Source: Actinomycetota bacterium (GTDB lineage: Bacteria > Actinomycetota > Coriobacteriia > Anaerosomatales > JAUXNU01). Taken from it: a stretch of DNA of 64,000 bases. Below are positions 45,052 through 57,644 of the stretch, piece after piece. Location of the stretch: NCBI GenBank assembly GCA_030682655.1, contig JAUXNU010000144.1, positions 27,991 to 91,990 on the forward strand, written 5' to 3'. How positions within the stretch are numbered: position 1 is the first letter of the stretch; every line of letters begins with the position of its first letter. The notes beneath the pieces are model-generated. The model was not told the DNA's origin, made no database searches, and worked only from the letters and a program-made list of their open reading frames with translations. The position numbers and the translations under genes are program-made.

Positions 45052-45348
45052 CTACTGGACGCACGACGAGTACTTGAGGAACACGGCGATTGCATCGTCG
45101 ATCAGCTCGTCCCGGGTCTTGTCAGTGTCATCGATCAGGCAGCGCTTCATCGAGTGCCCGATGATGTGCATCCCGACCTGATTGAGTGCCGACTTGGCCG
45201 CCATGATCTGGGTGAGGACGGCCTCACATTCCTTCTCGGACTCGATCATTGTCTGCAGGCCGCGAATCTGACCTTCGAGACGTTTGAGACGGTTGATGAT
45301 GCGCCGGCGCTCGCTGTCGTCGGGGATGGTTGCGGAGATGTCAGCCAT
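45052..45348 (-). CDS. CsoR/RcnR-family metal- or persulfide-sensing transcriptional repressor
   Basis: The sequence is RRRIINRLKRLEGQIRGLQTMIESEKECEAVLTQIMAAKSALNQVGMHIIGHSMKRC. I chose the start at MADIS (ATG, complement of 45348-45346). The 88-codon upstream extension in the ORF track is non-homologous. Confidence 0.85.
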   Translation of the reverse strand: MADISATIPDDSERRRIINRLKRLEGQIRGLQTMIESEKECEAVLTQIMAAKSALNQVGMHIIGHSMKRCLIDDTDKTRDELIDDAIAVFLKYSSCVQ

Positions 45349-47391: not shown

Positions 47392-47407
47392 TGGTATATA
47401 GTTTGCT
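47392..47407 (+). promoter_or_regulatory. promoter upstream of rpoN, readable as an extended -10 (TGGTATATA) or as a sigma-54 -24/-12 element (TGGTAT-N5-TTGCT)
   Basis: In TGGTATATAGTTTGCT the GG and GC are spaced exactly as in TGGCAC-N5-TTGC. The first 9 nt also match the TGnTAYACT housekeeping-type motif seen elsewhere in the window. Confidence 0.4.
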
Positions 47408-47463: not shown

Positions 47464-48861
47464 GTGGAGCTCGGTCAGCGACCAGAACTGCGACAGAAGG
47501 TCACCCTGTCGCCTCAGGTCTACCAGGGACTGAGTATTCTGGCGATGCCCATCGCCGATCTCGAGCTTCTCGTGGAGGCGGAGATGCTGGAGAATCCACT
47601 CCTCGAGGTCGACGAGCTCGAGTCGGAACCCGATGAGATGGAAGACGAGCGCGTGGAGTCGGCCGAGGAAGAACGAGCCTGGGACGATTGGCTCGAGATG
47701 TACGACGAGCTCGAGTCCATGGACACCTCGGCCCCCCGGGATCCCAATGCCGAAGCGCCCAATACCGAGGAGTACGTCGGCGGCGTTCTCTCATTCAGCG
47801 ACTACCTGATAGACCAGGTGGCACTACTCGATACTCCCGACGATGTCAGCCGTGCGGCGCGCGCAGTGATCGGCTTGCTTGATGGCGATGGTTTCTTCGA
47901 GGGGGATTGCGCGGAGATAGCCGCGCTCGCCGGTGTTTCGGGCGAGTCAGCGGAGCAGGGTCTTGGCGTCGTTCAACAACTCGATCCCCCCGGCGTCGGG
48001 GCCAGGAATGTGATCGAGGCCCTGATGATTCAATCGGCGTACCTGGGTCTTGAGGAGCCTCTGCTCGAGCGGCTGATCCGTTCGCATCTCGATGACGTCG
48101 CGGCGAGCCACTTCCGCAAGATCTCTCGTGCACTGCGTGTCGACGAGCGGGAGATATGGCGGCTCGTCGACGTGCTGAAGACATTGAACCCTCGTCCGGC
48201 AGGTGCGTTCTCGCCCGGCCCGTCGCCCGGGTACATCGTTCCGGACGTGACTCTGCGTCGCTTCGACGACGAGTGGCTCATCGTTTCGAACAACGAGTCC
48301 ATCCCGACCCTACGCGTCAGTCCGAAGTACCGCTCCATGTTGCGTTCCGGCTCAACAGCCGACGAAGACACCAGACGCTACCTTCGCGAGAAGATTCGGT
48401 CGGCCGAGAGCTTCATCAAGAACATCGACCGCCGCAAGGACACGGTGAGCAGGATCATCCGCATCATCCTGGAGGTTCAGGATGAGTTCTTCAAGGACGG
48501 TAGGGGCGATTTGAGGCCGTTGCGTCTCGAAGACGTGGCGGTCGAATTGGGGGTCCACCTCTCGACCGTCAGTCGTGGAGTGACGGCCAAGTACATGGCG
48601 ACCCCGTATGGGCTATTCGAGCTCAAGCACTTCTTCAGCGGTGGGTATCGGACGCGGCAAGGCGTAGATGTCTCTTCGACAAGCATCAAGCAGCACCTCA
48701 AGGGCATTGTGACCGCCGAAGACCCCAACCACCCGTTCTCGGATCAGAGACTCGCTGAGACGCTTTCCGACGAAGGCGTTCAGGTGGCTCGCAGGACGGT
48801 CGCGAAGTACCGGGAGGAACTCGGAATCGAGCCCTCGTGGGCGCGGAAGAGGCGACCGTGA
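47464..48861 (+). CDS. rpoN: RNA polymerase sigma-54 factor
   Basis: Region I (LRQKVTLSPQVYQGLSILAMPIADLELLVEAEMLENPLLEV), the HTH (LSTVSRGVTAKY) and the RpoN box (ARRTVAKYREELGI) are present. GTG 47464 lies 4 nt after GGAGGAG and was preferred over 47437. Confidence 0.9.
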   Translation: MELGQRPELRQKVTLSPQVYQGLSILAMPIADLELLVEAEMLENPLLEVDELESEPDEMEDERVESAEEERAWDDWLEMYDELESMDTSAPRDPNAEAPNTEEYVGGVLSFSDYLIDQVALLDTPDDVSRAARAVIGLLDGDGFFEGDCAEIAALAGVSGESAEQGLGVVQQLDPPGVGARNVIEALMIQSAYLGLEEPLLERLIRSHLDDVAASHFRKISRALRVDEREIWRLVDVLKTLNPRPAGAFSPGPSPGYIVPDVTLRRFDDEWLIVSNNESIPTLRVSPKYRSMLRSGSTADEDTRRYLREKIRSAESFIKNIDRRKDTVSRIIRIILEVQDEFFKDGRGDLRPLRLEDVAVELGVHLSTVSRGVTAKYMATPYGLFELKHFFSGGYRTRQGVDVSSTSIKQHLKGIVTAEDPNHPFSDQRLAETLSDEGVQVARRTVAKYREELGIEPSWARKRRP

Positions 48862-50396
48862 GCGAACCCACGACGACATTGAAGCCCGGTGCGGAGAATC
48901 CCAACGGAACCCGGAGGGCAACCCGCAACAGAGCGGTCCGTGCGGTTGGCCTTGTGGCCGCGATGCTTGTCGCCGTCACCGTGCTCCATCTCTTCACGGC
49001 TGTTAGCGGCGGCAACACCATGATTCATCTGCTCTACCGGCGGCTGTACTACATTCCGATTCTCTATGCGGCGTTCGTGTTCGGGAAGCGGGGTGGCCTT
49101 CTCGCGGCTCTTGGGGCCTCGACACCTTTCGCGCTGCACGCACAGGTGTCACTCGGTGGCTTGTTCGGGGCGCATGCGGATAACACGTATGAGGTGGTGA
49201 TGTACTTCGCCATGGGAGTGCTGTTCGGTACTCTTCGCGACATGGAGGAACGCAAGACTCACGACCTCCGACAGGTGAGTCTGCGCCTTGAGGATGCGTA
49301 CAAGAAGCTTGAGGAGCGCGCGATTCAGCTCATCAACATCCAGGACTACACGCAATCCATCCTGCGTTCGATCACCTCCGGTGTCTTGACGGTGGGTCCG
49401 GATGGATCTGTGACGACGGTGAACCCGGCTGCCGAGCGCATGCTGGGCATCTCCGAGTACGAGATGGTTCCCAAGCCGATCGGCGCCGTCCTGAAGGACG
49501 ACGGGGGGTTGTCCGCCGATGTCGAGAAGGTGCTGTCAGGACGCCTTCCCCTGACGTTGCGGGAGGTCAAGGTTGTCACGCAGTCTGACAAGACCATTCA
49601 TGTCCAGGCTTCCACCTCCCGTATGCGCGCCGTCGGAGGTCGCATCCTTGGCGCCGTTGTGACTGTCGAAGACATCTCGGAGGTCAAGAGCCTCACGGAG
49701 CAGCTGATCCGTGCCGACCGTCTGGCGGCAATGGGTGAGTTGACAGCGGGCGTGGCTCACGAGGTGCGCAACCCCCTCGGGATCATCCGGGCGTCCGTAC
49801 AGCTTCTCGAAGAGAGCAAGTGCGACGAGGACCGAATCCGTGAGGCTGCCGGCGTGATCAAGCAGGAGATCGATCGGTTGGACAAGGTGATCAAGGCCTT
49901 GCTGGACTTCGGGAGGCCGAGCAAGCCGACGTTCGTCGAGACCGATGTCGAGAGCGTGCTGAGTGATGTGGTTCTCTTCACCAAGCGGTTTGCGAAACAG
50001 GCTGACGTGGCGATCGAAGAGCACTTCTCGGCCAGCCTCCCTCTTGTCCATGCCGATCCCGATCAGTTGAAGCAGGTGTTCCTGAATCTCGTGACCAATG
50101 CAGTCCAGGTAATGGAGGAATCCGGGGGGACTATCGCAATCGAGACTGGCCATGTGCCGGGCTACGTCTTCGTCACCGTGTCAGATACCGGGCCCGGCAT
50201 TTCGGAAGCATCCCTCGGCAAGGTGTTCGATCCCTTCTTCTCCACGCGCGACGAAGGCACCGGTCTTGGACTGACGATGGTACACAGAATCATCGACGAG
50301 CATGATGGGCATATCGAAGTGGGGAGCGGGTCAGACGGAACCGTGTTTCGCGTGTCACTTCCCGTGGCGGCCCACAACGACATTGATGAGGAGTGA
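48858..50396 (+). CDS. sensor histidine kinase (membrane domain - PAS - HisKA - HATPase), NtrB/AtoS-like
   Basis: It has the H-box GVAHEVRNPLG, the N-box LNLVTNAVQ, and G-boxes DTGPGI and GTGLGL. GTG 48858 overlaps the rpoN stop; GTG 48837 is an alternative start. Confidence 0.85.
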   Translation: MSEPTTTLKPGAENPNGTRRATRNRAVRAVGLVAAMLVAVTVLHLFTAVSGGNTMIHLLYRRLYYIPILYAAFVFGKRGGLLAALGASTPFALHAQVSLGGLFGAHADNTYEVVMYFAMGVLFGTLRDMEERKTHDLRQVSLRLEDAYKKLEERAIQLINIQDYTQSILRSITSGVLTVGPDGSVTTVNPAAERMLGISEYEMVPKPIGAVLKDDGGLSADVEKVLSGRLPLTLREVKVVTQSDKTIHVQASTSRMRAVGGRILGAVVTVEDISEVKSLTEQLIRADRLAAMGELTAGVAHEVRNPLGIIRASVQLLEESKCDEDRIREAAGVIKQEIDRLDKVIKALLDFGRPSKPTFVETDVESVLSDVVLFTKRFAKQADVAIEEHFSASLPLVHADPDQLKQVFLNLVTNAVQVMEESGGTIAIETGHVPGYVFVTVSDTGPGISEASLGKVFDPFFSTRDEGTGLGLTMVHRIIDEHDGHIEVGSGSDGTVFRVSLPVAAHNDIDEE

Positions 50397-50399
50397 CAA

Positions 50400-51749
50400 A
50401 TGAAGCAGCGCGTGCTGATCGTCGATGACGAGAAGAACATGCGTTGGGTGCTCGCCCAAGCGCTGGAGGCGGTGGGTTTCGATGTGGGCCAGGCCGCGGA
50501 CGGCAAGGAAGCGCTCGCAGCCGTAGCGGACCAGGAGCCAGACATAATGGTGCTCGACCACCGCATGCCCGCTCCCGACGGCATGGAGGTGCTGCGCCGT
50601 TTGCGCGCCGAGGGCAGGACGTTCCCCGTCATCATGCTGACGGCGCATGGCAACGTGGCCACGGCAGTAGACGCGATGAAGGCCGGCGCCAACGAGTACC
50701 TGACGAAGCCGTTCGATCTCGAGGAGCTAAAGCTCGCCATCGAGAAGGCTCTCAGGTTGAGTACCCTCGCCGCCGAGGTCGAAAGGCTGCGAGAGGAGCT
50801 GGATCGCGAGTACGATGTCGAGGGCATCGTCGCTGCAGACGAACGCATGACCGGTGTTCTCGAGACGGTCCAGCGCGTTGCGCCGACCAGTGCGACGGTG
50901 ATGATCTATGGCGAGTCGGGTACCGGCAAGGAGTTGGTGGCCCGCGCGATACATGCTCTGTCCGAGCGCTCATCCAAGCCCTTCGTGTCGGTGAGCGCTG
51001 GCGCGCTTCCCGAGACACTCCTCGAAAGCGAGCTCTTTGGATTCGAGAAGGGGGCATTCACCGGCGCGATCACCGCCAAACCGGGTCGATTCGAACTCGC
51101 GAACAGTGGGACGCTGTTCCTCGACGAGGTCGGTGACATCCCTCCGTCGGTGCAGGTCAAGCTGCTTCGCGTGCTCCAGGAGCGGCAATTCGAGCGCCTC
51201 GGCGGTACGCGCACGATCGAGGTGGACGTGCGGGTAGTAGCTGCGACCAATCGCGACCTGCAGCAGCTCATCGCCGAGGACATGTTCCGCGAAGACCTCT
51301 TCTACCGGCTTAACGTCGTGCCGGTCACCCTTCCGCCCCTGCGCAAGCGTCCGGGAGACATTGCGCCGCTGGTCGCGCATTTCCTCGACAAGTACAACGC
51401 GGGTAGCCGAACCATCTCAAGTGAGGCGATGGAGGCAATGGCGGCGTACCAGTGGCCGGGTAATGTGCGCGAACTGGAGAACACGATCGAGCGGATACTG
51501 ATTCTGGCTCATGGTGACGAGATCGGTATCGGAGACTTGCCAGCAGAAGTGAGACTGGGCTCCATCGCGTGCGACAGGTCGGCAGTCGGAATCGTGCTGC
51601 CAGAAGACGGATGCAGCCTGGAAGAGGTCGAGCTAGACCTCATCCGTCAGGCGCTTGACCGTAGCGGCGGGGCCGCTCCGAAGGCGGCGAAACTATTGGG
51701 GCTGACCACCAAGACTCTTGAGGCCCGGATGGCGCGCCTGGGGTTGTGA
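50400..51749 (+). CDS. sigma-54-dependent response regulator (REC - AAA+ - Fis-type HTH), NtrC family
   Basis: It has a REC Asp (IMVLDHRMP), Walker A (GESGTGKE), the GAFTGA loop (EKGAFTGAI), Walker B (LFLDEVG) and a C-terminal HTH (AAKLLGLTTKTLEARM). Confidence 0.92.
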   Translation: MKQRVLIVDDEKNMRWVLAQALEAVGFDVGQAADGKEALAAVADQEPDIMVLDHRMPAPDGMEVLRRLRAEGRTFPVIMLTAHGNVATAVDAMKAGANEYLTKPFDLEELKLAIEKALRLSTLAAEVERLREELDREYDVEGIVAADERMTGVLETVQRVAPTSATVMIYGESGTGKELVARAIHALSERSSKPFVSVSAGALPETLLESELFGFEKGAFTGAITAKPGRFELANSGTLFLDEVGDIPPSVQVKLLRVLQERQFERLGGTRTIEVDVRVVAATNRDLQQLIAEDMFREDLFYRLNVVPVTLPPLRKRPGDIAPLVAHFLDKYNAGSRTISSEAMEAMAAYQWPGNVRELENTIERILILAHGDEIGIGDLPAEVRLGSIACDRSAVGIVLPEDGCSLEEVELDLIRQALDRSGGAAPKAAKLLGLTTKTLEARMARLGL

Positions 51750-52195
51750 TGCGCGCGACTGCCGTTCCCGTTTCTTGGCACACGCCTTGCAACTCCAGTG
51801 CTGACAGCTCGATGAACCGGGAAATCGTGGACCGCATACACCTCACACGAACGTACCTTCTTGCACCGATAGCAGTCGTCGCCACGGCGGCCGCCGCCGC
51901 GTTAGTGATCGCCATCGAGACGGGCGGCGGGATCGGTGGCTGTACGTCAACTGCTGCATTCCGGTGGTTCGTGCCGCTGCTTGCTGCTGCGGTGATCGGC
52001 GGAGTAGCGATCATGCTGCTCGAGGGCTCTCCTTCCGAGTCCGCTTCCACCGACACGCTGCAATCGGGCACGTGCGCGGTCTGCGGTTCGGCAATCATGG
52101 ATGAGTGGAAGCTCTGTCCGCATTGCGGTGCGCTTCTTGAGTGCGATGTCAGGATGCCGCTGACGGGCGCCGGATACGGAGAGCGCGAGAACTGA
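51746..52195 (+). CDS. two-TM membrane protein with C-terminal zinc-ribbon (CxxC..CxxC)
   Basis: GTG 51746 overlaps the regulator stop; ATG 51812 is an alternative start. The zinc-ribbon segment is CAVCGSAIMDEWKLCPHCG. Confidence 0.5.
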   Translation: MMRATAVPVSWHTPCNSSADSSMNREIVDRIHLTRTYLLAPIAVVATAAAAALVIAIETGGGIGGCTSTAAFRWFVPLLAAAVIGGVAIMLLEGSPSESASTDTLQSGTCAVCGSAIMDEWKLCPHCGALLECDVRMPLTGAGYGEREN

Positions 52196-52202
52196 GCCGA
52201 TC

Positions 52203-53360
52203 GTGGATGTATTCCTGCTCATGCTCGGTCTGGGACTTGTGACGAGCGTCCACTGCGTTGCGATGTGTGGAACCCTTGTGGCGACCTATGCGCTCAAGGA
52301 AGGCTCCTCAGGGCGAGTCTCACAGGGCATGACACCTCACCTGGTGTACCAGTCCGCAAAGATCCTCAGCTACGTCCTCGTGGGCTTGATTCTTGGCACA
52401 TTGGGTGAAGTCTTCGACCTGGCCGGGGTGCGCGGATGGGTGCAACTTGCCGCTGGCCTCTTCATGGTGTTGCTCGGCATCAACATGCTGGGCCGGTTCC
52501 CGCTGCTCAGGAAGCTCGCCCTGAGAACCCCGCGTGCCGTGACTGCGGCGCTCGTGCGCACGCGCAAGAAGGCCTTGGCCGAGGAGAGAGAAGACTCCCA
52601 CAACCTCGTCACGCCCGCGACCTTCGGCCTACTGACAGGCCTGATGCCCTGCGGGCCCTTGCAGGCAGCGCAGTTGTCGGCCGCAGCAACCGGTAGCGCC
52701 TTGTCGGGAGCCACAGCGATGCTCGGCTTCGGCCTCGGCGCTGCACCCTTGATGCTGGCGTTCGGCCTGGGGTCCGGCTACCTGGGATCGGCATTCAAGA
52801 AGCGTATGACTGCGGTTGCGGCCATTGCGATCATCGTGCTCGGGCTGGTGATGTTCAATCGCGGATCCATGTTGGTCGGGTCACCCTTGACGCTCCGAGC
52901 CGCGAAGCAGGCCGTCATGGGTTCGGCGGCCCGGACCGAGGCGAGTCCTGAGTATCGCGCAGGCGCCGACGGCGTCATCGAGATCGATCTGGTCATCCAG
53001 AACACCCGGTTCGTGCCCGAAACAGTCTCGGTCCCGGTTGACCGTCCGTTCAGGCTCGTCGTGGAACGCCGGGAAGACGGTGCGTGCTCCGACCAGATCG
53101 CTGTTCCGCAGGTCGGCATCCTGGCAGACCTGGCGCCCAACGGCGTCACGGCTGTCGAGTTTCCGCCAATGGGATCCGGTGCGTACACTTTGACCTGCGG
53201 AATGGGGATGATGTCCGGCAGGATCTTGGCCGGTGATGCTGCTGCCGAGGTCACGGGAACGCCGATTGTGGGCATAGCACTAGGAGCGCTACTCGTCGGC
53301 ATCTTCGGCTACGCCGCAAGTCGCAAGACACGGCCGCGAGATGGCGCGGCGCTAGGTTGA
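52203..53360 (+). CDS. DsbD_2/UreH-like membrane domain fused to a cupredoxin_1-like domain
   Basis: The membrane motifs SVHCVAMCG and GLMPCGPL are followed by the C-terminal segment IQNTRFVPETV..AYTLTCGMGMMSGRI and a final TM helix. Confidence 0.65.
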   Translation: MDVFLLMLGLGLVTSVHCVAMCGTLVATYALKEGSSGRVSQGMTPHLVYQSAKILSYVLVGLILGTLGEVFDLAGVRGWVQLAAGLFMVLLGINMLGRFPLLRKLALRTPRAVTAALVRTRKKALAEEREDSHNLVTPATFGLLTGLMPCGPLQAAQLSAAATGSALSGATAMLGFGLGAAPLMLAFGLGSGYLGSAFKKRMTAVAAIAIIVLGLVMFNRGSMLVGSPLTLRAAKQAVMGSAARTEASPEYRAGADGVIEIDLVIQNTRFVPETVSVPVDRPFRLVVERREDGACSDQIAVPQVGILADLAPNGVTAVEFPPMGSGAYTLTCGMGMMSGRILAGDAAAEVTGTPIVGIALGALLVGIFGYAASRKTRPRDGAALG

Positions 53361-53372
53361 TCGCCACGGAGT

Positions 53373-53388
53373 TGGCACTTGGTTCGCA
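53373..53388 (+). promoter_or_regulatory. sigma-54 (-24/-12) promoter upstream of copZ
   Basis: Compared with the consensus TGGCAC-N5-TTGCW, TGGCACTTGGTTCGCA has a perfect -24 hexamer, correctly spaced GG/GC and one mismatch in the -12 element. It lies in the 85-nt gap before copZ. The implied TSS is about 48 nt upstream of ATG 53446. Confidence 0.6.
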
Positions 53389-53445
53389 ACGCGTTACACC
53401 TGCATGTTCGACGTGCTGTCGGCAGCGATGCGGAGGAGAACGACT

Positions 53446-53667
53446 ATGGCTGAACTGACCGAGGCAAGACTCATGACGACCGGGCTTCACTGCCGGTCAT
53501 GCTCCATGCTTGTAGACATGACCGTTGGGGATCTCGACGGCGTCGATAGCGTCAGCACGGACTACGTGACAGGTGCGACCGACGTGATGTTCGATTCGGA
53601 TGTGGTGACAACCGAAGATATCGTGGCTGCGATACGGTCGGCGGGCTATGACGTTGACGATGCCTAG
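53446..53667 (+). CDS. copZ: heavy-metal-associated (HMA) domain metallochaperone, CopZ-like
   Basis: The 73-aa protein has the CxxC motif in GLHCRSCS and a ferredoxin-like HMA pattern (..VD.V.GV.SV........V.FD......I..AI..AGY). ATG 53446 follows GGAGGAG. Confidence 0.8.
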   Translation: MAELTEARLMTTGLHCRSCSMLVDMTVGDLDGVDSVSTDYVTGATDVMFDSDVVTTEDIVAAIRSAGYDVDDA

Positions 53668-54221
53668 AGAATCCGAAGCGGACATGACTGGGCATTCCTA
53701 CACAACGGGCTCCCGCAGAAAGTACCTACTGGTGGGCGCGCTCGCCCTGTTGGCGTTTGTCGGCGCATATGGCGTGGCCTCGGCCACCAGCAGGACGCCC
53801 GACCCCTCGGTAGCTGTCGCCGGTGTGGGGCAGAGCACAGGGGCGGGTCAGGGGGCTGGGGCAGGTCAGGGGGCTGGGGCAGGTCAGGACGGCGGAGCGT
53901 GCGGCGGGGAGTGCTGCGGCACGGGGGGCGTCGAAACCGAGGGCTCGGCTGCAGTCTCGGATGGTGTGCAGCGAATACAAGTCGATGTGTCGGCCGGCTT
54001 CTTCGATCCGACCGTCATTCGCGCGCAGGCCAGGGTACCCCTGGAGATTTCATTCGGTGAGGGATCCGGCTGTTTGGCGGAGGTGCACTCTCCCCAGCTG
54101 GGTGTATTTCGAGGATCTCACTCGCGGTGGCGCCACCGTCAATCTGAAGGCGCTTGACCCCGGCACGTATGGCTTCTCGTGCGGCATGGAGATGGCGTCC
54201 GGTACGCTGGTGGTCGAATAG
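53648..54221 (+). pseudogene. membrane-anchored cupredoxin_1-like protein, interrupted by a +1 frameshift at TTT 54107-54109
   Basis: One frame encodes a TM anchor, a Gly-rich linker and ..VQRIQVDVSAGFFDPTVI..GCLAEVHSPQLGV, ending at 54157. The +1 frame continues FEDLTRGGATVNLKALDPGTYGFSCGMEMASGTLVVE to 54221. The joined sequence aligns with the cupredoxin domain of the 52203 gene (ACSDQIAVPQVGILADL..YTLTCGMGMMSGRI). Confidence 0.6.
53840..53887 (+). repeat. in-frame tandem repeat encoding (GAGQ)(GAGAGQ)x2
   Basis: The 18-nt unit GGGGCTGGGGCAGGTCAG is perfectly duplicated (53852-53869 and 53870-53887), preceded by a 12-nt partial copy. Confidence 0.85.
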
Positions 54222-54230
54222 GGGGCGGCA

Positions 54231-56864
54231 ATGTCCGAAGAGACTTCGGCGCGCGCTGATGCGCGTGACGAGACCGCTCCCCACGATGGTGAGGAGAGCG
54301 TCGATTTCGCCGTCACAGGCATGACGTGTGCCTCATGCGCGGCCGTGATCGAGAAGACCCTGGCCAAAACGGAGGGGGTCGATTCTGCTGCAGTCAACCT
54401 TGCTGCGGAGAGACTGCGGGTCACATTCGACCCGACCAGGATCGACATCGATGAGATCGTTTCGCAGGTAGAGAGTGCCGGCTACGGAGCCACTAGCATG
54501 TCCAAGGCCGTGGCTTCCCCTGCGACCGGGCACGTGGACCTGGTGGTCACAGGGATGACCTGCGCTTCGTGCAGCGCCGTCATCGAGAAATCGCTCGACA
54601 AGGTCGACGGTGTCTCGGCGGCGGTTGTGAACCTGGCTCGGGAAAGTGCATCCGTCGATTTCGATCCGGTGATCGTCGGGCCGGAAGAGATCATCTCTGC
54701 AGTCATCGCTGCCGGATACGGAGCGGAGCTCAAGACGGAGAGCGTTGTCGGTGCCGGTGTGGAGGCAGACGCACAGAGTGCCGCGCAGCGCGCGTTCTAT
54801 CAGCATCAGCGTAACCTGCTCGTGTTCTCCGCCACCCTCTCCATTCCTCTGCTCTTTGTGGCCATGGTGCCGCCGTTCATGGAGGCGATTCCGACATGGA
54901 TCGCCTCGATATTCGGGATCTCGGGCGAGTCCGGCGTCATGATGGTTCACAAGTACATCATGCTGGTGCTCGCCACCCCTGTGCAGTTCTACGCCGGCGC
55001 ACAGTACTACCGTGGGTTCTGGCATGCACTGAAGCGACGCACCGGCAACATGGACACGCTGGTTGCGATCGGAACGACCGCCGCGTTCGCGTACAGCGTG
55101 GCGGCCACATTCTGGATAACCGAGCAGCCCGCGTTCTACGAAACGAGCGCATTGCTCATCACATTCGTTCTCCTTGGCAAGATGCTTGAGGCGCGGGCCA
55201 AAGGTCGCACGGGGGACGCGATCAAGAAGCTCATGGGACTTGCGGCCAAGACGGCGCGCGTTGTGCGCGGCGGGGAGGAACTCGACGTTGCCGTGGAGCA
55301 GGTCGTGGTGGGCGATATCGTCATCGTCCGGCCGGGCGAGAAGGTCCCTGTCGATGGTGTACTGACCGAGGGCGGGTCCTCGGTCGACGAATCGATGCTG
55401 ACGGGCGAGTCCATACCCGTTGAGAAGAACCCCGGAGACACGGTCATCGGTGCGACGCTGAACAAGCTCGGCTCGTTCAGGATGCGGGCCACCAAGGTCG
55501 GCCGGGACACCGCCCTCGCGCAGATCATCCGACTCGTCGAGGAAGCGCAGGGCTCCAAGGCCCCGGTGCAACGGTTCGCGGATCGCATCAGTGCGGTGTT
55601 CGTCCCCGCAGTCGTCGGGACGGCGCTTGCGACGTTTCTGTTCTGGCTGATCGCAGGACCGGTCATCTTTGGCGCAGCACCCGATCCCGCAGCCTACGCG
55701 ACGGTGTTGCACCCGATACTGAGGGCTGCGGCCGGCAGCGGGTGGTTCGTGGCTGCGCTTCTCGCGGGCACAGCGGCCGTGGTCATCGCGTGTCCATGCG
55801 CTCTCGGGCTCGCGACGCCGACGGCCATCATGGTCGGAACCGGGAAGGGCGCCGAGAACGGCGTGCTCATCAAGAGCGGCGAAGCCCTCGAGACGGCGTA
55901 TCGAATCGATGCCATCGTCTTCGACAAGACCGGCACACTGACCCACGGGCAGCCCAAGGTGACCGATGTCGTAGCCCTCGATTCCGAGGACCCCACACGG
56001 ATTCTGGAGCTGGCCGCCTCTCTCGAGCGCTCGAGCGAGCATCCCCTGGCCGAGGCCATAGTGGGGCATGCGAATGACACCGGAGTTGCAGTGCACCCCG
56101 TGATCTCCTTCTCCGCGATACCCGGGCATGGCGTGGCGGGCGAGGTAGATGGAACGCGGGTCGTACTCGGCAATCGCAAGCTCATGGAGCGCGAGGCCCT
56201 CGCGTGCGACTCGTGCGAGCGCGAGATCGCGGAGCTTGAGTCGCAGGGCAAGACCGTGATGATCGTTGGGATCTCGGGAGTCCGGCCGGTGGGACTCATC
56301 GCCGTTGCCGACACGCTGAAGGAGCACTCCAAGCCCGCAGTTGCGCGCCTGCGTGAGATGGGTGTGGAGGTCTACATGATCACGGGCGACAACCGGACGA
56401 CGGCACAGGCTGTTGCCCTGCAGGCCGGAATCTCCTCGGATCACGTTCTCGCTGAAGTGCTTCCCGAGGACAAGGCGACGAGAGTCGCAGCTCTGCAGAG
56501 CCAAGGACTGCGAACCGCGATGGTCGGCGACGGCATCAACGATACACCGGCACTTGCCCAGGCCGATGTCGGCATCGCGATGGGCGCGGGCACGGATGTT
56601 GCCATGGAGACGGGCGGCATCGTGCTCATCAAGAACGATCTTCGCGATGTGGTGACCGCCATCGAGCTGTCTCGCGCGACGATGCGCAAGATCAAGTCGA
56701 ACTTCGTCTGGGCGCTCGGCTACAACACACTGGGCATTCCTGTGGCGGCGATAGGCCTGCTCTCGCAGTTCCCGTGGCTTGCTGGGGCTGCGATGGCGTT
56801 TTCCAGCGTCAGCGTCGTGACGAACTCCTTGCTGCTACGCCGATTCCGTCCCTCCATGCGATAA
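54231..56864 (+). CDS. copA: copper-translocating P1B-type ATPase
   Basis: It has two N-terminal HMA domains (GMTCASC twice), TGES, the CPC motif ([11 protein letters not shown]), DKTGTLT, HP (SEHPLA) and [10 protein letters not shown]. Confidence 0.95.
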
Positions 56865-56918: not shown

Positions 56919-57644
56919 ATGGAGAATTCCGTTGGACTAGCTGCTGCTTTTGCAGCCGGTCTCGTCTCGTTTCTTTCGCCGTGCGTCCTTCCGCTGATTC
57001 CGGCATACATCTCATTCATCACCGGGATGTCCGCTTCGGAACTGGCCAAGGAGAGAGCGCCGCTCCGTGTGGTACTCGCACCGAGCCTGTTGTTCGTTGC
57101 CGGGTTCTCGCTGGTGTTTGTCGCATTGGGCGCTTCTGCATCCCTTTTGGGTGCGTTTCTGGTGGCGTACCGGCTGCTGCTGGTGAGAATCGCTGGCGGA
57201 GCGCTGTTGGTACTCGGATTCTTCATGCTCGGTGTCATAGAGGTGCCCTGGCTGTATGGCGAGGCGCGATTCGAGATGGGGAAGGCCCGCGCTTTCGGTC
57301 GTGGCGCGGCGCTGGTCATGGGCATGGCCTTCGCGTTCGGTTGGACGCCGTGCGTCGGGCCGATTCTGGGCTCGATTCTCGCCGTAGCCGGCTCGTCCGG
57401 AAGCGTTGGTACTGGCGTTCTTCTGCTCTCCGCGTACTCTCTGGGTCTCGGAGTCCCCTTTGTCTTGGTGGCGTTGCTGTTCGGTAAGCTGGGGGGCACA
57501 CTGCGTTGGCTTGGCCGGCACTCCTTGGCCATCAACAGGGTGGCGGGAGCGGTGCTGATCGCGGTCGGCGTTCTTATGATCACCGGCCGACTCGGAGTAC
57601 TGTCCGGATGGCTCTCAACCGTGCTGCCATCCGTCGGATTGTAG
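56919..57644 (+). CDS. ccdA: cytochrome c biogenesis / thiol-disulfide electron transfer protein CcdA (DsbD family)
   Basis: Six TM helices carry the motifs LSPCVLPLIPAYISF and FGWTPCVGPILG. Confidence 0.85.
   Translation: MENSVGLAAAFAAGLVSFLSPCVLPLIPAYISFITGMSASELAKERAPLRVVLAPSLLFVAGFSLVFVALGASASLLGAFLVAYRLLLVRIAGGALLVLGFFMLGVIEVPWLYGEARFEMGKARAFGRGAALVMGMAFAFGWTPCVGPILGSILAVAGSSGSVGTGVLLLSAYSLGLGVPFVLVALLFGKLGGTLRWLGRHSLAINRVAGAVLIAVGVLMITGRLGVLSGWLSTVLPSVGL

Follow-up and report, generated by a model that had tools for sequence, protein, structure and literature searches.

The interval in front of copZ, a metallochaperone-like gene in a genome of the actinobacterial order Anaerosomatales, contains a sequence, referred to here as P2, that resembles a -24/-12 promoter of the sigma-54 type. 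Whereas this type of promoter is standard in itself, the host belongs to a phylum that has been reported to lack sigma-54. A survey from 2011 describes the Actinobacteria as devoid of a sigma-54 system (PMC3162934), and the paper describing the Anaerosomatales does not mention one. This raises the questions of whether P2 is a functional promoter, which activator would serve it, and what it would contribute next to the other promoters of the locus. We consider it very likely that P2 functions as a sigma-54 promoter, namely as an internal second promoter of a copper/thiol regulon, because the machinery is encoded nearby, the site is conserved in relatives, a spacing control separates it from chance matches, and a position weight matrix (PWM) derived from the clade recognizes it. 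The activity of P2, its start point, the acting activator and the place where it binds, as well as the inducing signal, are inferred.

A sigma-54-type site within a copper and thiol gene string

The window analysed is a stretch of 64,000 nucleotides (G000:C124:27991-91990) from a metagenome-derived assembly of an uncultured bacterium, which comprises 2.94 Mb with 64% G+C in 221 contigs. Genes were assigned on the basis of Pfam domains, lists of open reading frames and our own gene calls (Table 1).

Table 1. Features of the copZ locus; positions are those of the window
Feature	Position	Strand	Details
P0, sigma-54-type site TGGTATATAGTTTGCT	47392-47407	+	intergenic; 2 mismatches; 56 nt before rpoN start
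rpoN (sigma-54)	47464-48861	+	Sigma54_AID, Sigma54_CBD, Sigma54_DBD, E 3.5e-12 to 9.6e-56; RpoN box ARRTVAKYR
Sensor histidine kinase	48837-50396	+	Pfam PAS, HisKA, HATPase_c; N-terminus predicted to be membrane-embedded (translation)
NtrC-type enhancer-binding response regulator	50400-51749	+	REC, AAA+ with GAFTGA, HTH_8; Sigma54_activat E 9e-71
Near-palindrome AGGTCGAGCTAGACCT	51625-51640 (G000:C124:79615)		151 nt before P1, inside activator gene; at most 1 mismatch in 11 of 17 loci
P1, predicted sigma-54 promoter TGGCACACGCCTTGCA	51776-51791	+	perfect; TGGCAC-N5-TTGCA
znr, small zinc-ribbon membrane protein	51812-52195	+	weak Pfam zinc-ribbon matches
DsbD_2 transmembrane domain fused to cupredoxin-like domain	52203-53360	+	DsbD_2 E 3.2e-44; Cupredoxin_1 E 2.8e-11
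P2, sigma-54-type site TGGCACTTGGTTCGCA	53373-53388	+	TGGCAC-TTGGT-TCGCA
Predicted transcription start of P2	53398-53400	+	standard -24/-12 geometry, C at 53387 taken as -12
Ribosome-binding site of copZ	53433-53439	+	GGAGGAG
copZ-like HMA metallochaperone	53446-53667	+	73 residues; HMA E 7e-13; motif GLHCRSC
orfX, cupredoxin-like gene	53648-54221	+	two overlapping frames, 53648-54157 and 54102-54221
CopA	54231-56864	+	E1-E2_ATPase, Hydrolase, 2 x HMA (N-terminal)
CcdA-like thiol-reductant transporter	56919-57644	+	DsbD_TM E 4.4e-17; last gene of conserved cluster

P2 is intergenic and co-oriented with copZ, and it begins 12 nt past the TGA (53358-53360) of the DsbD_2-cupredoxin gene. An initial annotation of this DNA had described a perfect TGGCAC hexamer with the GG and GC dinucleotides spaced exactly as in the consensus TGGCAC-N5-TTGC, and a single deviation in the -12 element, TCGC for TTGC. 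Both observations hold: the GG of the -24 element (53374-53375) and the GC of the -12 element (53386-53387) are 10 nt apart, and the C in place of T at -14 is the sole mismatch among the ten fixed positions. The distance from the C at -12 to the ATG of copZ (53446) is 59 nt, and the copZ orthologues align from the first residue encoded by this ATG. A transcript from P2 would start near 53399 and carry a 5' untranslated region of about 47 nt.

The same annotation regarded position 53373 as the only well-placed intergenic TGGCAC in the window. This proved incorrect, as there is also the perfect site P1. Altogether the window has 34 occurrences of TGGCAC, five of which are followed by a correctly spaced GC, and two of these five are intergenic (53373 and 51776). 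Probably, an open reading frame that the earlier reader started from the GTG at 51746 hid P1.

The genes for sigma-54, the sensor kinase and the NtrC-type regulator are located 1.6-6 kb upstream of P2 in the same gene string. Genome-wide, the regulator gene at 50400-51749 is the only one that encodes a complete enhancer-binding protein. A contig of 2.4 kb (C186:1-2440) carries a further rpoN-kinase-activator string, which is truncated and shares 69-80% identity with the copy in the window; this second string may represent a paralogue from a recent duplication or a binning contamination (estimated at 4.6%). Each relative searched has one copy of rpoN.

Downstream of P2, the translation of CopA, which we take to be a P1B-type ATPase, reads with the motifs CPC, YN and MxxSS. 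Between copZ and copA, relatives have one conserved gene at the position of orfX, and the reading of orfX in two frames suggests an apparent frameshift or an assembly error. A consensus scan of 51600-54400 revealed neither a sigma-70-like promoter nor an intrinsic terminator.

Candidate sigma-54 sites elsewhere in the locus and in the genome

P1 is located 1.6 kb upstream of P2, between the activator gene, whose stop (51749) is 27 nt away, and znr, whose ATG (51812) follows after 21 nt. In the form TGGCA[CT]-N5-TTGCA it follows the activator gene in 33 of the 35 loci that include the activator 3' end, and znr orthologues are located downstream of P1 in most loci. By its placement, P1 is the predicted promoter that drives znr and the genes after it. 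A site of the form TGGTA[TC]-N5-TTGC[TA], equivalent to P0, occurs at the same place before rpoN in 35 of 38 loci of the order. This conservation suggests that the rpoN-kinase-activator operon is autoregulated through P0.

A further site, P3, precedes stand-alone DsbD_2-cupredoxin-copZ-cupredoxin-copA clusters of relatives. In 22 of the 25 such loci, which have no linked activator gene, a sigma-54-type site is found roughly 450-600 nt before the DsbD_2 gene. The genome under study also harbours a stand-alone paralogous cluster (C170:45844-50830). It consists of a small membrane gene and genes for a DsbD_2-cupredoxin protein (51% identity), a cupredoxin-like protein and CopA (67% identity), and CGGCACGAACATTGCT is present 33-36 nt before the first gene.

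Outside of the copper and thiol genes, a clpC-type AAA+ gene has TGGCATTTGACTTGCT 110 nt upstream (G000:C87:55312-55329), and a gene for a class A penicillin-binding protein (PBP1A) is preceded by TGGCACACAGTTCGCG (G000:C158:45670-45687). Among the 29 relatives listed, 26 have kept the clpC site, TGGCA[CT]-N5-TTGCT. With the site of this genome included, 23 of 27 clpC sites have C or T at position 7, T being common there. For the PBP1A gene, 15 of the 29 relatives listed have TGGCA[CT]-N5-TCGC approximately 115-135 nt upstream, where the site is flanked by a conserved GGCACAAT box downstream and a conserved GGYAACG upstream. When the base at -14 is compared across the groups, every P2 and PBP1A site has C, and every P1, P0 and clpC site has T. 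This pattern suggests that there may be two grades of promoter.

More TGGCAC-N5-TCGC sequences in promoter position were noticed at C216:9725 and C216:9844, C33:14392, C169:32157, C45:26741, C19:10749 and C177:30993. Judged by eye from the translations, the genes behind these sites code for an NlpC/P60-like protein, a SHOCT membrane protein, a PAS protein, a NifU-like protein, a family-2 glycosyltransferase, a polysaccharide deacetylase and a small protein of unknown function. The site before the glycosyltransferase gene is absent from the sole close orthologue among the relatives.

P2 is conserved in several families of the Anaerosomatales

The genes for the sigma-54 machinery are a regular feature of the order. 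Among 41 genomes, 38 have rpoN and 39 the DsbD_2-cupredoxin gene, and the cluster rpoN-kinase-activator-znr-copZ-(cupredoxin-like gene)-ccdA is nearly universal. Of 401 genomes drawn evenly from the phylum, 12 have an rpoN above the family cut-off, five of them from this order.

Eight or nine other genomes of the order have a P2-type site at a distance of 40-68 nt from the copZ start; the carriers are G000 (the genome under study), G010, G011, G017, G030, G037, G040 and G009, with a weaker version in G006. For a systematic view, we scored the best site in the 160 nt before copZ in 33 genomes with an enterobacterial PWM; the copZ of G009, which does have a P2-type site, was left out of this set. 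The scores are bimodal. Eight of the 33 genomes have a site of 7.8-14.8 bits at 40-68 nt from the start (14.5-14.8 bits in five of them), and the other 25 reach 6.2 bits at most. All six genomes with a DsbD_2-cupredoxin gene between znr and copZ have the site before copZ. As the genomes compared are related, these counts are descriptive and do not represent independent trials.

An alignment of seven genomes across the region before copZ shows GGCA and TCGC as the only invariant columns, at a mean column identity of 47%. Since there is no close relative of the genome under study, the function of P2 in this genome rests on orthology with the sites of other families. Together with rpoN and the activator gene upstream, the presence of the site in several families backs the original proposal that a sigma-54 promoter precedes copZ.

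The alignment also bears on a different assignment of the same bases. TTGGCA (53372-53377) matches the -35 hexamer TTGACA at five of six positions and might thus belong to a promoter for the housekeeping sigma factor, with a CsoR-type repressor controlling copZ as in other actinobacteria; a CsoR-family gene is indeed present in the window (45052-45348). However, the scan of 51600-54400 mentioned above revealed no sigma-70-like promoter, and TACACC, located 17 nt downstream, does not end in the T expected of a -10 element. The alignment shows no conserved -10-like hexamer, whereas TCGC is invariant right where the spacer would be. We regard a housekeeping promoter under CsoR control as extremely improbable.

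To place the gains and losses of the site, the P2-bearing genomes were mapped on a maximum-likelihood tree of RpoN, kinase and activator. They are scattered over the tree, which requires seven changes, with well-supported branches forcing at least five. Therefore, the site has been lost or gained repeatedly. About 25 genomes of the order have copZ behind P1 and no P2, and therefore P2 is dispensable.

Tests of P2 against chance matches

How often a sequence like P2 arises by chance was assessed in the window, in the whole genome and with two PWMs. Within the window, seven sites have at most one mismatch to the consensus versus 3.7 ± 2.0 in shuffled sequences, a difference that is not significant, as 10 of 100 shuffles reach seven.

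For the genome-wide counts, gene boundaries came from our own simple codon-usage caller, which is crude (2833 genes, 88.7% coding), and promoter position was defined as intergenic, co-oriented and within 300 nt of a start. Sites with at most one mismatch to TGGCAC-N5-TTGC, GG and GC being fixed, number 19 in promoter position, 11 in other intergenic regions and 90 in coding regions. When the spacer is varied, one-mismatch sites in promoter position amount to 18 for N5, and spacers of 1-4 and 6-10 nt give 6 on average. The exact type of P2, TGGCAC-N5-TCGC, occurs seven times in promoter position, 12 times in coding regions and not at all in other intergenic regions. With nine wrong spacings (1-4 and 6-10 nt), TGGCAC and TCGC yield a mean of 0.33 in promoter position versus the seven at N5.

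The enterobacterial PWM was built from 29 intergenic Salmonella sigma-54 sites (PMC3844500, Table 3). On this matrix, P2 scores 10.2 bits and thus falls below all training sites (13.9-19.8 bits). As many as 366 genome positions score equally well or better, and the band of 10-12 bits is not enriched in intergenic regions. In this respect, the term 'high-quality' used in the initial annotation was an overstatement. The matrix penalises T at position 7 and C at -14. Because both bases are common in conserved sites of the clade, the enterobacterial PWM does not transfer to this clade and misjudges its promoters.

We compiled a clade PWM from 95 conserved sites of relatives (32 P1, 22 P3, 15 PBP1A and 26 clpC sites), a training set that contains no P2 site and none from the genome under study. 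P2 scores 15.05 bits on this matrix, inside the training range of 11.9-20.6 bits, a level that no more than 28 of the 5.9 million genome positions attain. Of the 28, ten occupy a promoter position and another three are found at most 35 nt away from a called start. By chance, about one match in promoter position would be expected, as roughly estimated from the rate in coding regions. The comparison with genomic background that had been proposed as a check thus gave two answers: with the enterobacterial matrix P2 is at the level of background, which speaks against it, and with the clade matrix it ranks among the 28 best sites.

Taken together, P2 stands significantly above chance in the genome-wide spacing control, in its conservation among relatives and in the clade PWM. 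If P2 were a chance match without function, the modest count in the window and the failure of the enterobacterial PWM to separate P2 from background would be readily explained. Such a reading is nevertheless very unlikely, considering that the spacing control gives seven sites against 0.33, that eight or nine other genomes have the site equally far from copZ, and that the clade PWM places P2 among the best sites of the genome.

The activator of P2 and its binding site

As the only complete enhancer-binding protein of the genome, the regulator encoded at 50400-51749 is by elimination the predicted activator of P2. A single enhancer-binding protein is also found in most genomes of the order, and a second, longer one in 7 of 41 (open frames of about 530-650 residues). 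The initial annotation had named the adjacent activator as well, placing its binding site within the 3' end of the 52203-53360 gene. Elimination argues for the activator, but the site was not found there, in agreement with the remark of the earlier reader that this region has no convincing palindrome of an upstream activating sequence (UAS).

We enumerated 5+5 palindromes upstream of P1 and P2, and none rose above shuffled controls. Likewise, expectation-maximisation motif searches in nine P2 regions plus two displaced P1 regions, and in 22 P3 regions, returned no motif above shuffled controls. A UAS common to P2 and the other promoters was not found.

The palindrome AGGTCGAGCTCGACCT, which is located inside the activator gene 135-206 nt before P1 in 11 of 17 loci, was considered as a shared enhancer. 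It was rejected, since its bases code for the conserved peptide VELDL and nothing comparable is present upstream of P2; the best matches upstream of P2 have 5-7 mismatches, as in random DNA. An inverted repeat (53097-53114/53192-53209) sits in conserved cupredoxin coding sequence.

In a broader scenario for the Anaerosomatales, the single activator encoded in one operon with sigma-54 would drive a dispersed regulon composed of its own operon, the copper/thiol genes, clpC and the PBP1A gene. As the searches revealed no enhancer common to these promoters, it might do so independently of a conventional upstream site, and the invariant C at -14 would have been selected to tune promoter strength or tightness. 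We consider this broader scenario rather unlikely as a whole.

A model for transcription from P2

In the model that we favour, sigma-54 RNA polymerase, its sigma factor being encoded 4.5 kb upstream, would bind the GG at -24 and the GC at -12 of P2 as a closed complex. The PAS histidine kinase would phosphorylate the NtrC-type regulator, which in its phosphorylated form would open the closed complex through ATP hydrolysis. Transcription would then proceed from about 53399 through copZ, the cupredoxin-like gene and copA, and probably ccdA. Because there is no terminator between copZ and the upstream genes, P2 would add to read-through from P1. Where 1.2 kb of extra coding sequence intervenes after P1, P2 may restore direct access of a promoter to copZ.

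Alternatively, P2 may bind the sigma-54 holoenzyme or be a decaying relic, in either case with little transcription of its own, so that copZ and copA depend mainly on read-through from P1. The missing terminator between the DsbD_2-cupredoxin gene and copZ would permit this, most genomes of the order manage without P2, and the site scores 10.2 bits on the enterobacterial PWM versus 14.5-14.8 bits for orthologues. On the other hand, GGCA and TCGC have remained invariant across families although their flanks have diverged to 47% identity, the site before copZ is kept wherever the DsbD_2-cupredoxin insertion of 1.2 kb is present, and T at position 7 is tolerated in the conserved clpC sites. We thus find it improbable that P2 is a weak or relic site, and retain the functional second promoter as our model.

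As for the signal, the target genes point to metal, thiol or envelope stress, since they encode a Cu(I)-type ATPase, a metallochaperone, cupredoxin-like proteins, DsbD/CcdA proteins, ClpC and PBP1A. Most likely, the inducer would be copper, another thiol-reactive metal, or envelope stress.

Comparison with known systems

P2 represents direct sequence evidence for the use of sigma-54 in an actinobacterial order, and the layout of P0, P1 and P2 predicts how the regulon could be wired. With this analysis, P2 has been identified in this genome, the claim that it is the only such site has been corrected, and a matrix from enterobacteria has been found to misjudge the promoters of the clade.

A sequence precedent for P2 is the glnAp2 promoter of E. 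coli and Salmonella, TGGCACAGATTTCGCT (PMC2831329, PMC3844500). Its -24 hexamer is identical to that of P2, and its -12 element departs from the consensus in the same way, as TCGC. Unlike P2, glnAp2 is part of a nitrogen regulon for which NtrC enhancers have been mapped, and its hosts are unrelated to the bacterium studied here; the parallel is restricted to the sequence.

With regard to gene content, the closest comparison is with CorSR and the curA operon of Myxococcus xanthus. CorSR is a sigma-54-dependent copper-responsive two-component system, and the operon has four putative sigma-54 promoters, one of them directly before copA, and includes a Cupredoxin_1 protein besides copA (PMC3707914). 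In both cases an NtrC-type regulator (REC, Sigma54_activat, HTH_8) and a kinase adjoin copper genes with sigma-54-type promoters. Whereas CorS is described as having a periplasmic sensor and a HAMP domain (PMC3707914), the kinase encoded in the window has a PAS domain, a hydrophobic N-terminus and no HAMP match in Pfam. In M. xanthus, copA has an ECF-sigma promoter in addition (PMC3707914), of which none was seen here. Moreover, the system described here differs from CorSR in that the operon includes rpoN and the genome encodes no other complete activator, and the host, unlike M. xanthus, is a monoderm actinobacterium.

A similar regulatory logic is known from ZraSR of E. coli and Salmonella, where an NtrC-type regulator activates the sigma-54 promoters of a metal/envelope-stress gene and of its own operon. 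The zraP and hydH sites are both contained in the Salmonella sigma-54 table (PMC3844500). In place of zraP, the predicted targets in the genome under study are znr, copZ, copA and ccdA, and while binding sites of ZraR are known, none were found here. Another difference concerns the number of activators: enterobacteria have many enhancer-binding proteins, in contrast to the single one of this genome. With a single activator, all sigma-54 promoters of the genome should respond to the same signal, and the regulon would therefore lend itself to simple tests in members of the order that are in culture (PMC9686372).
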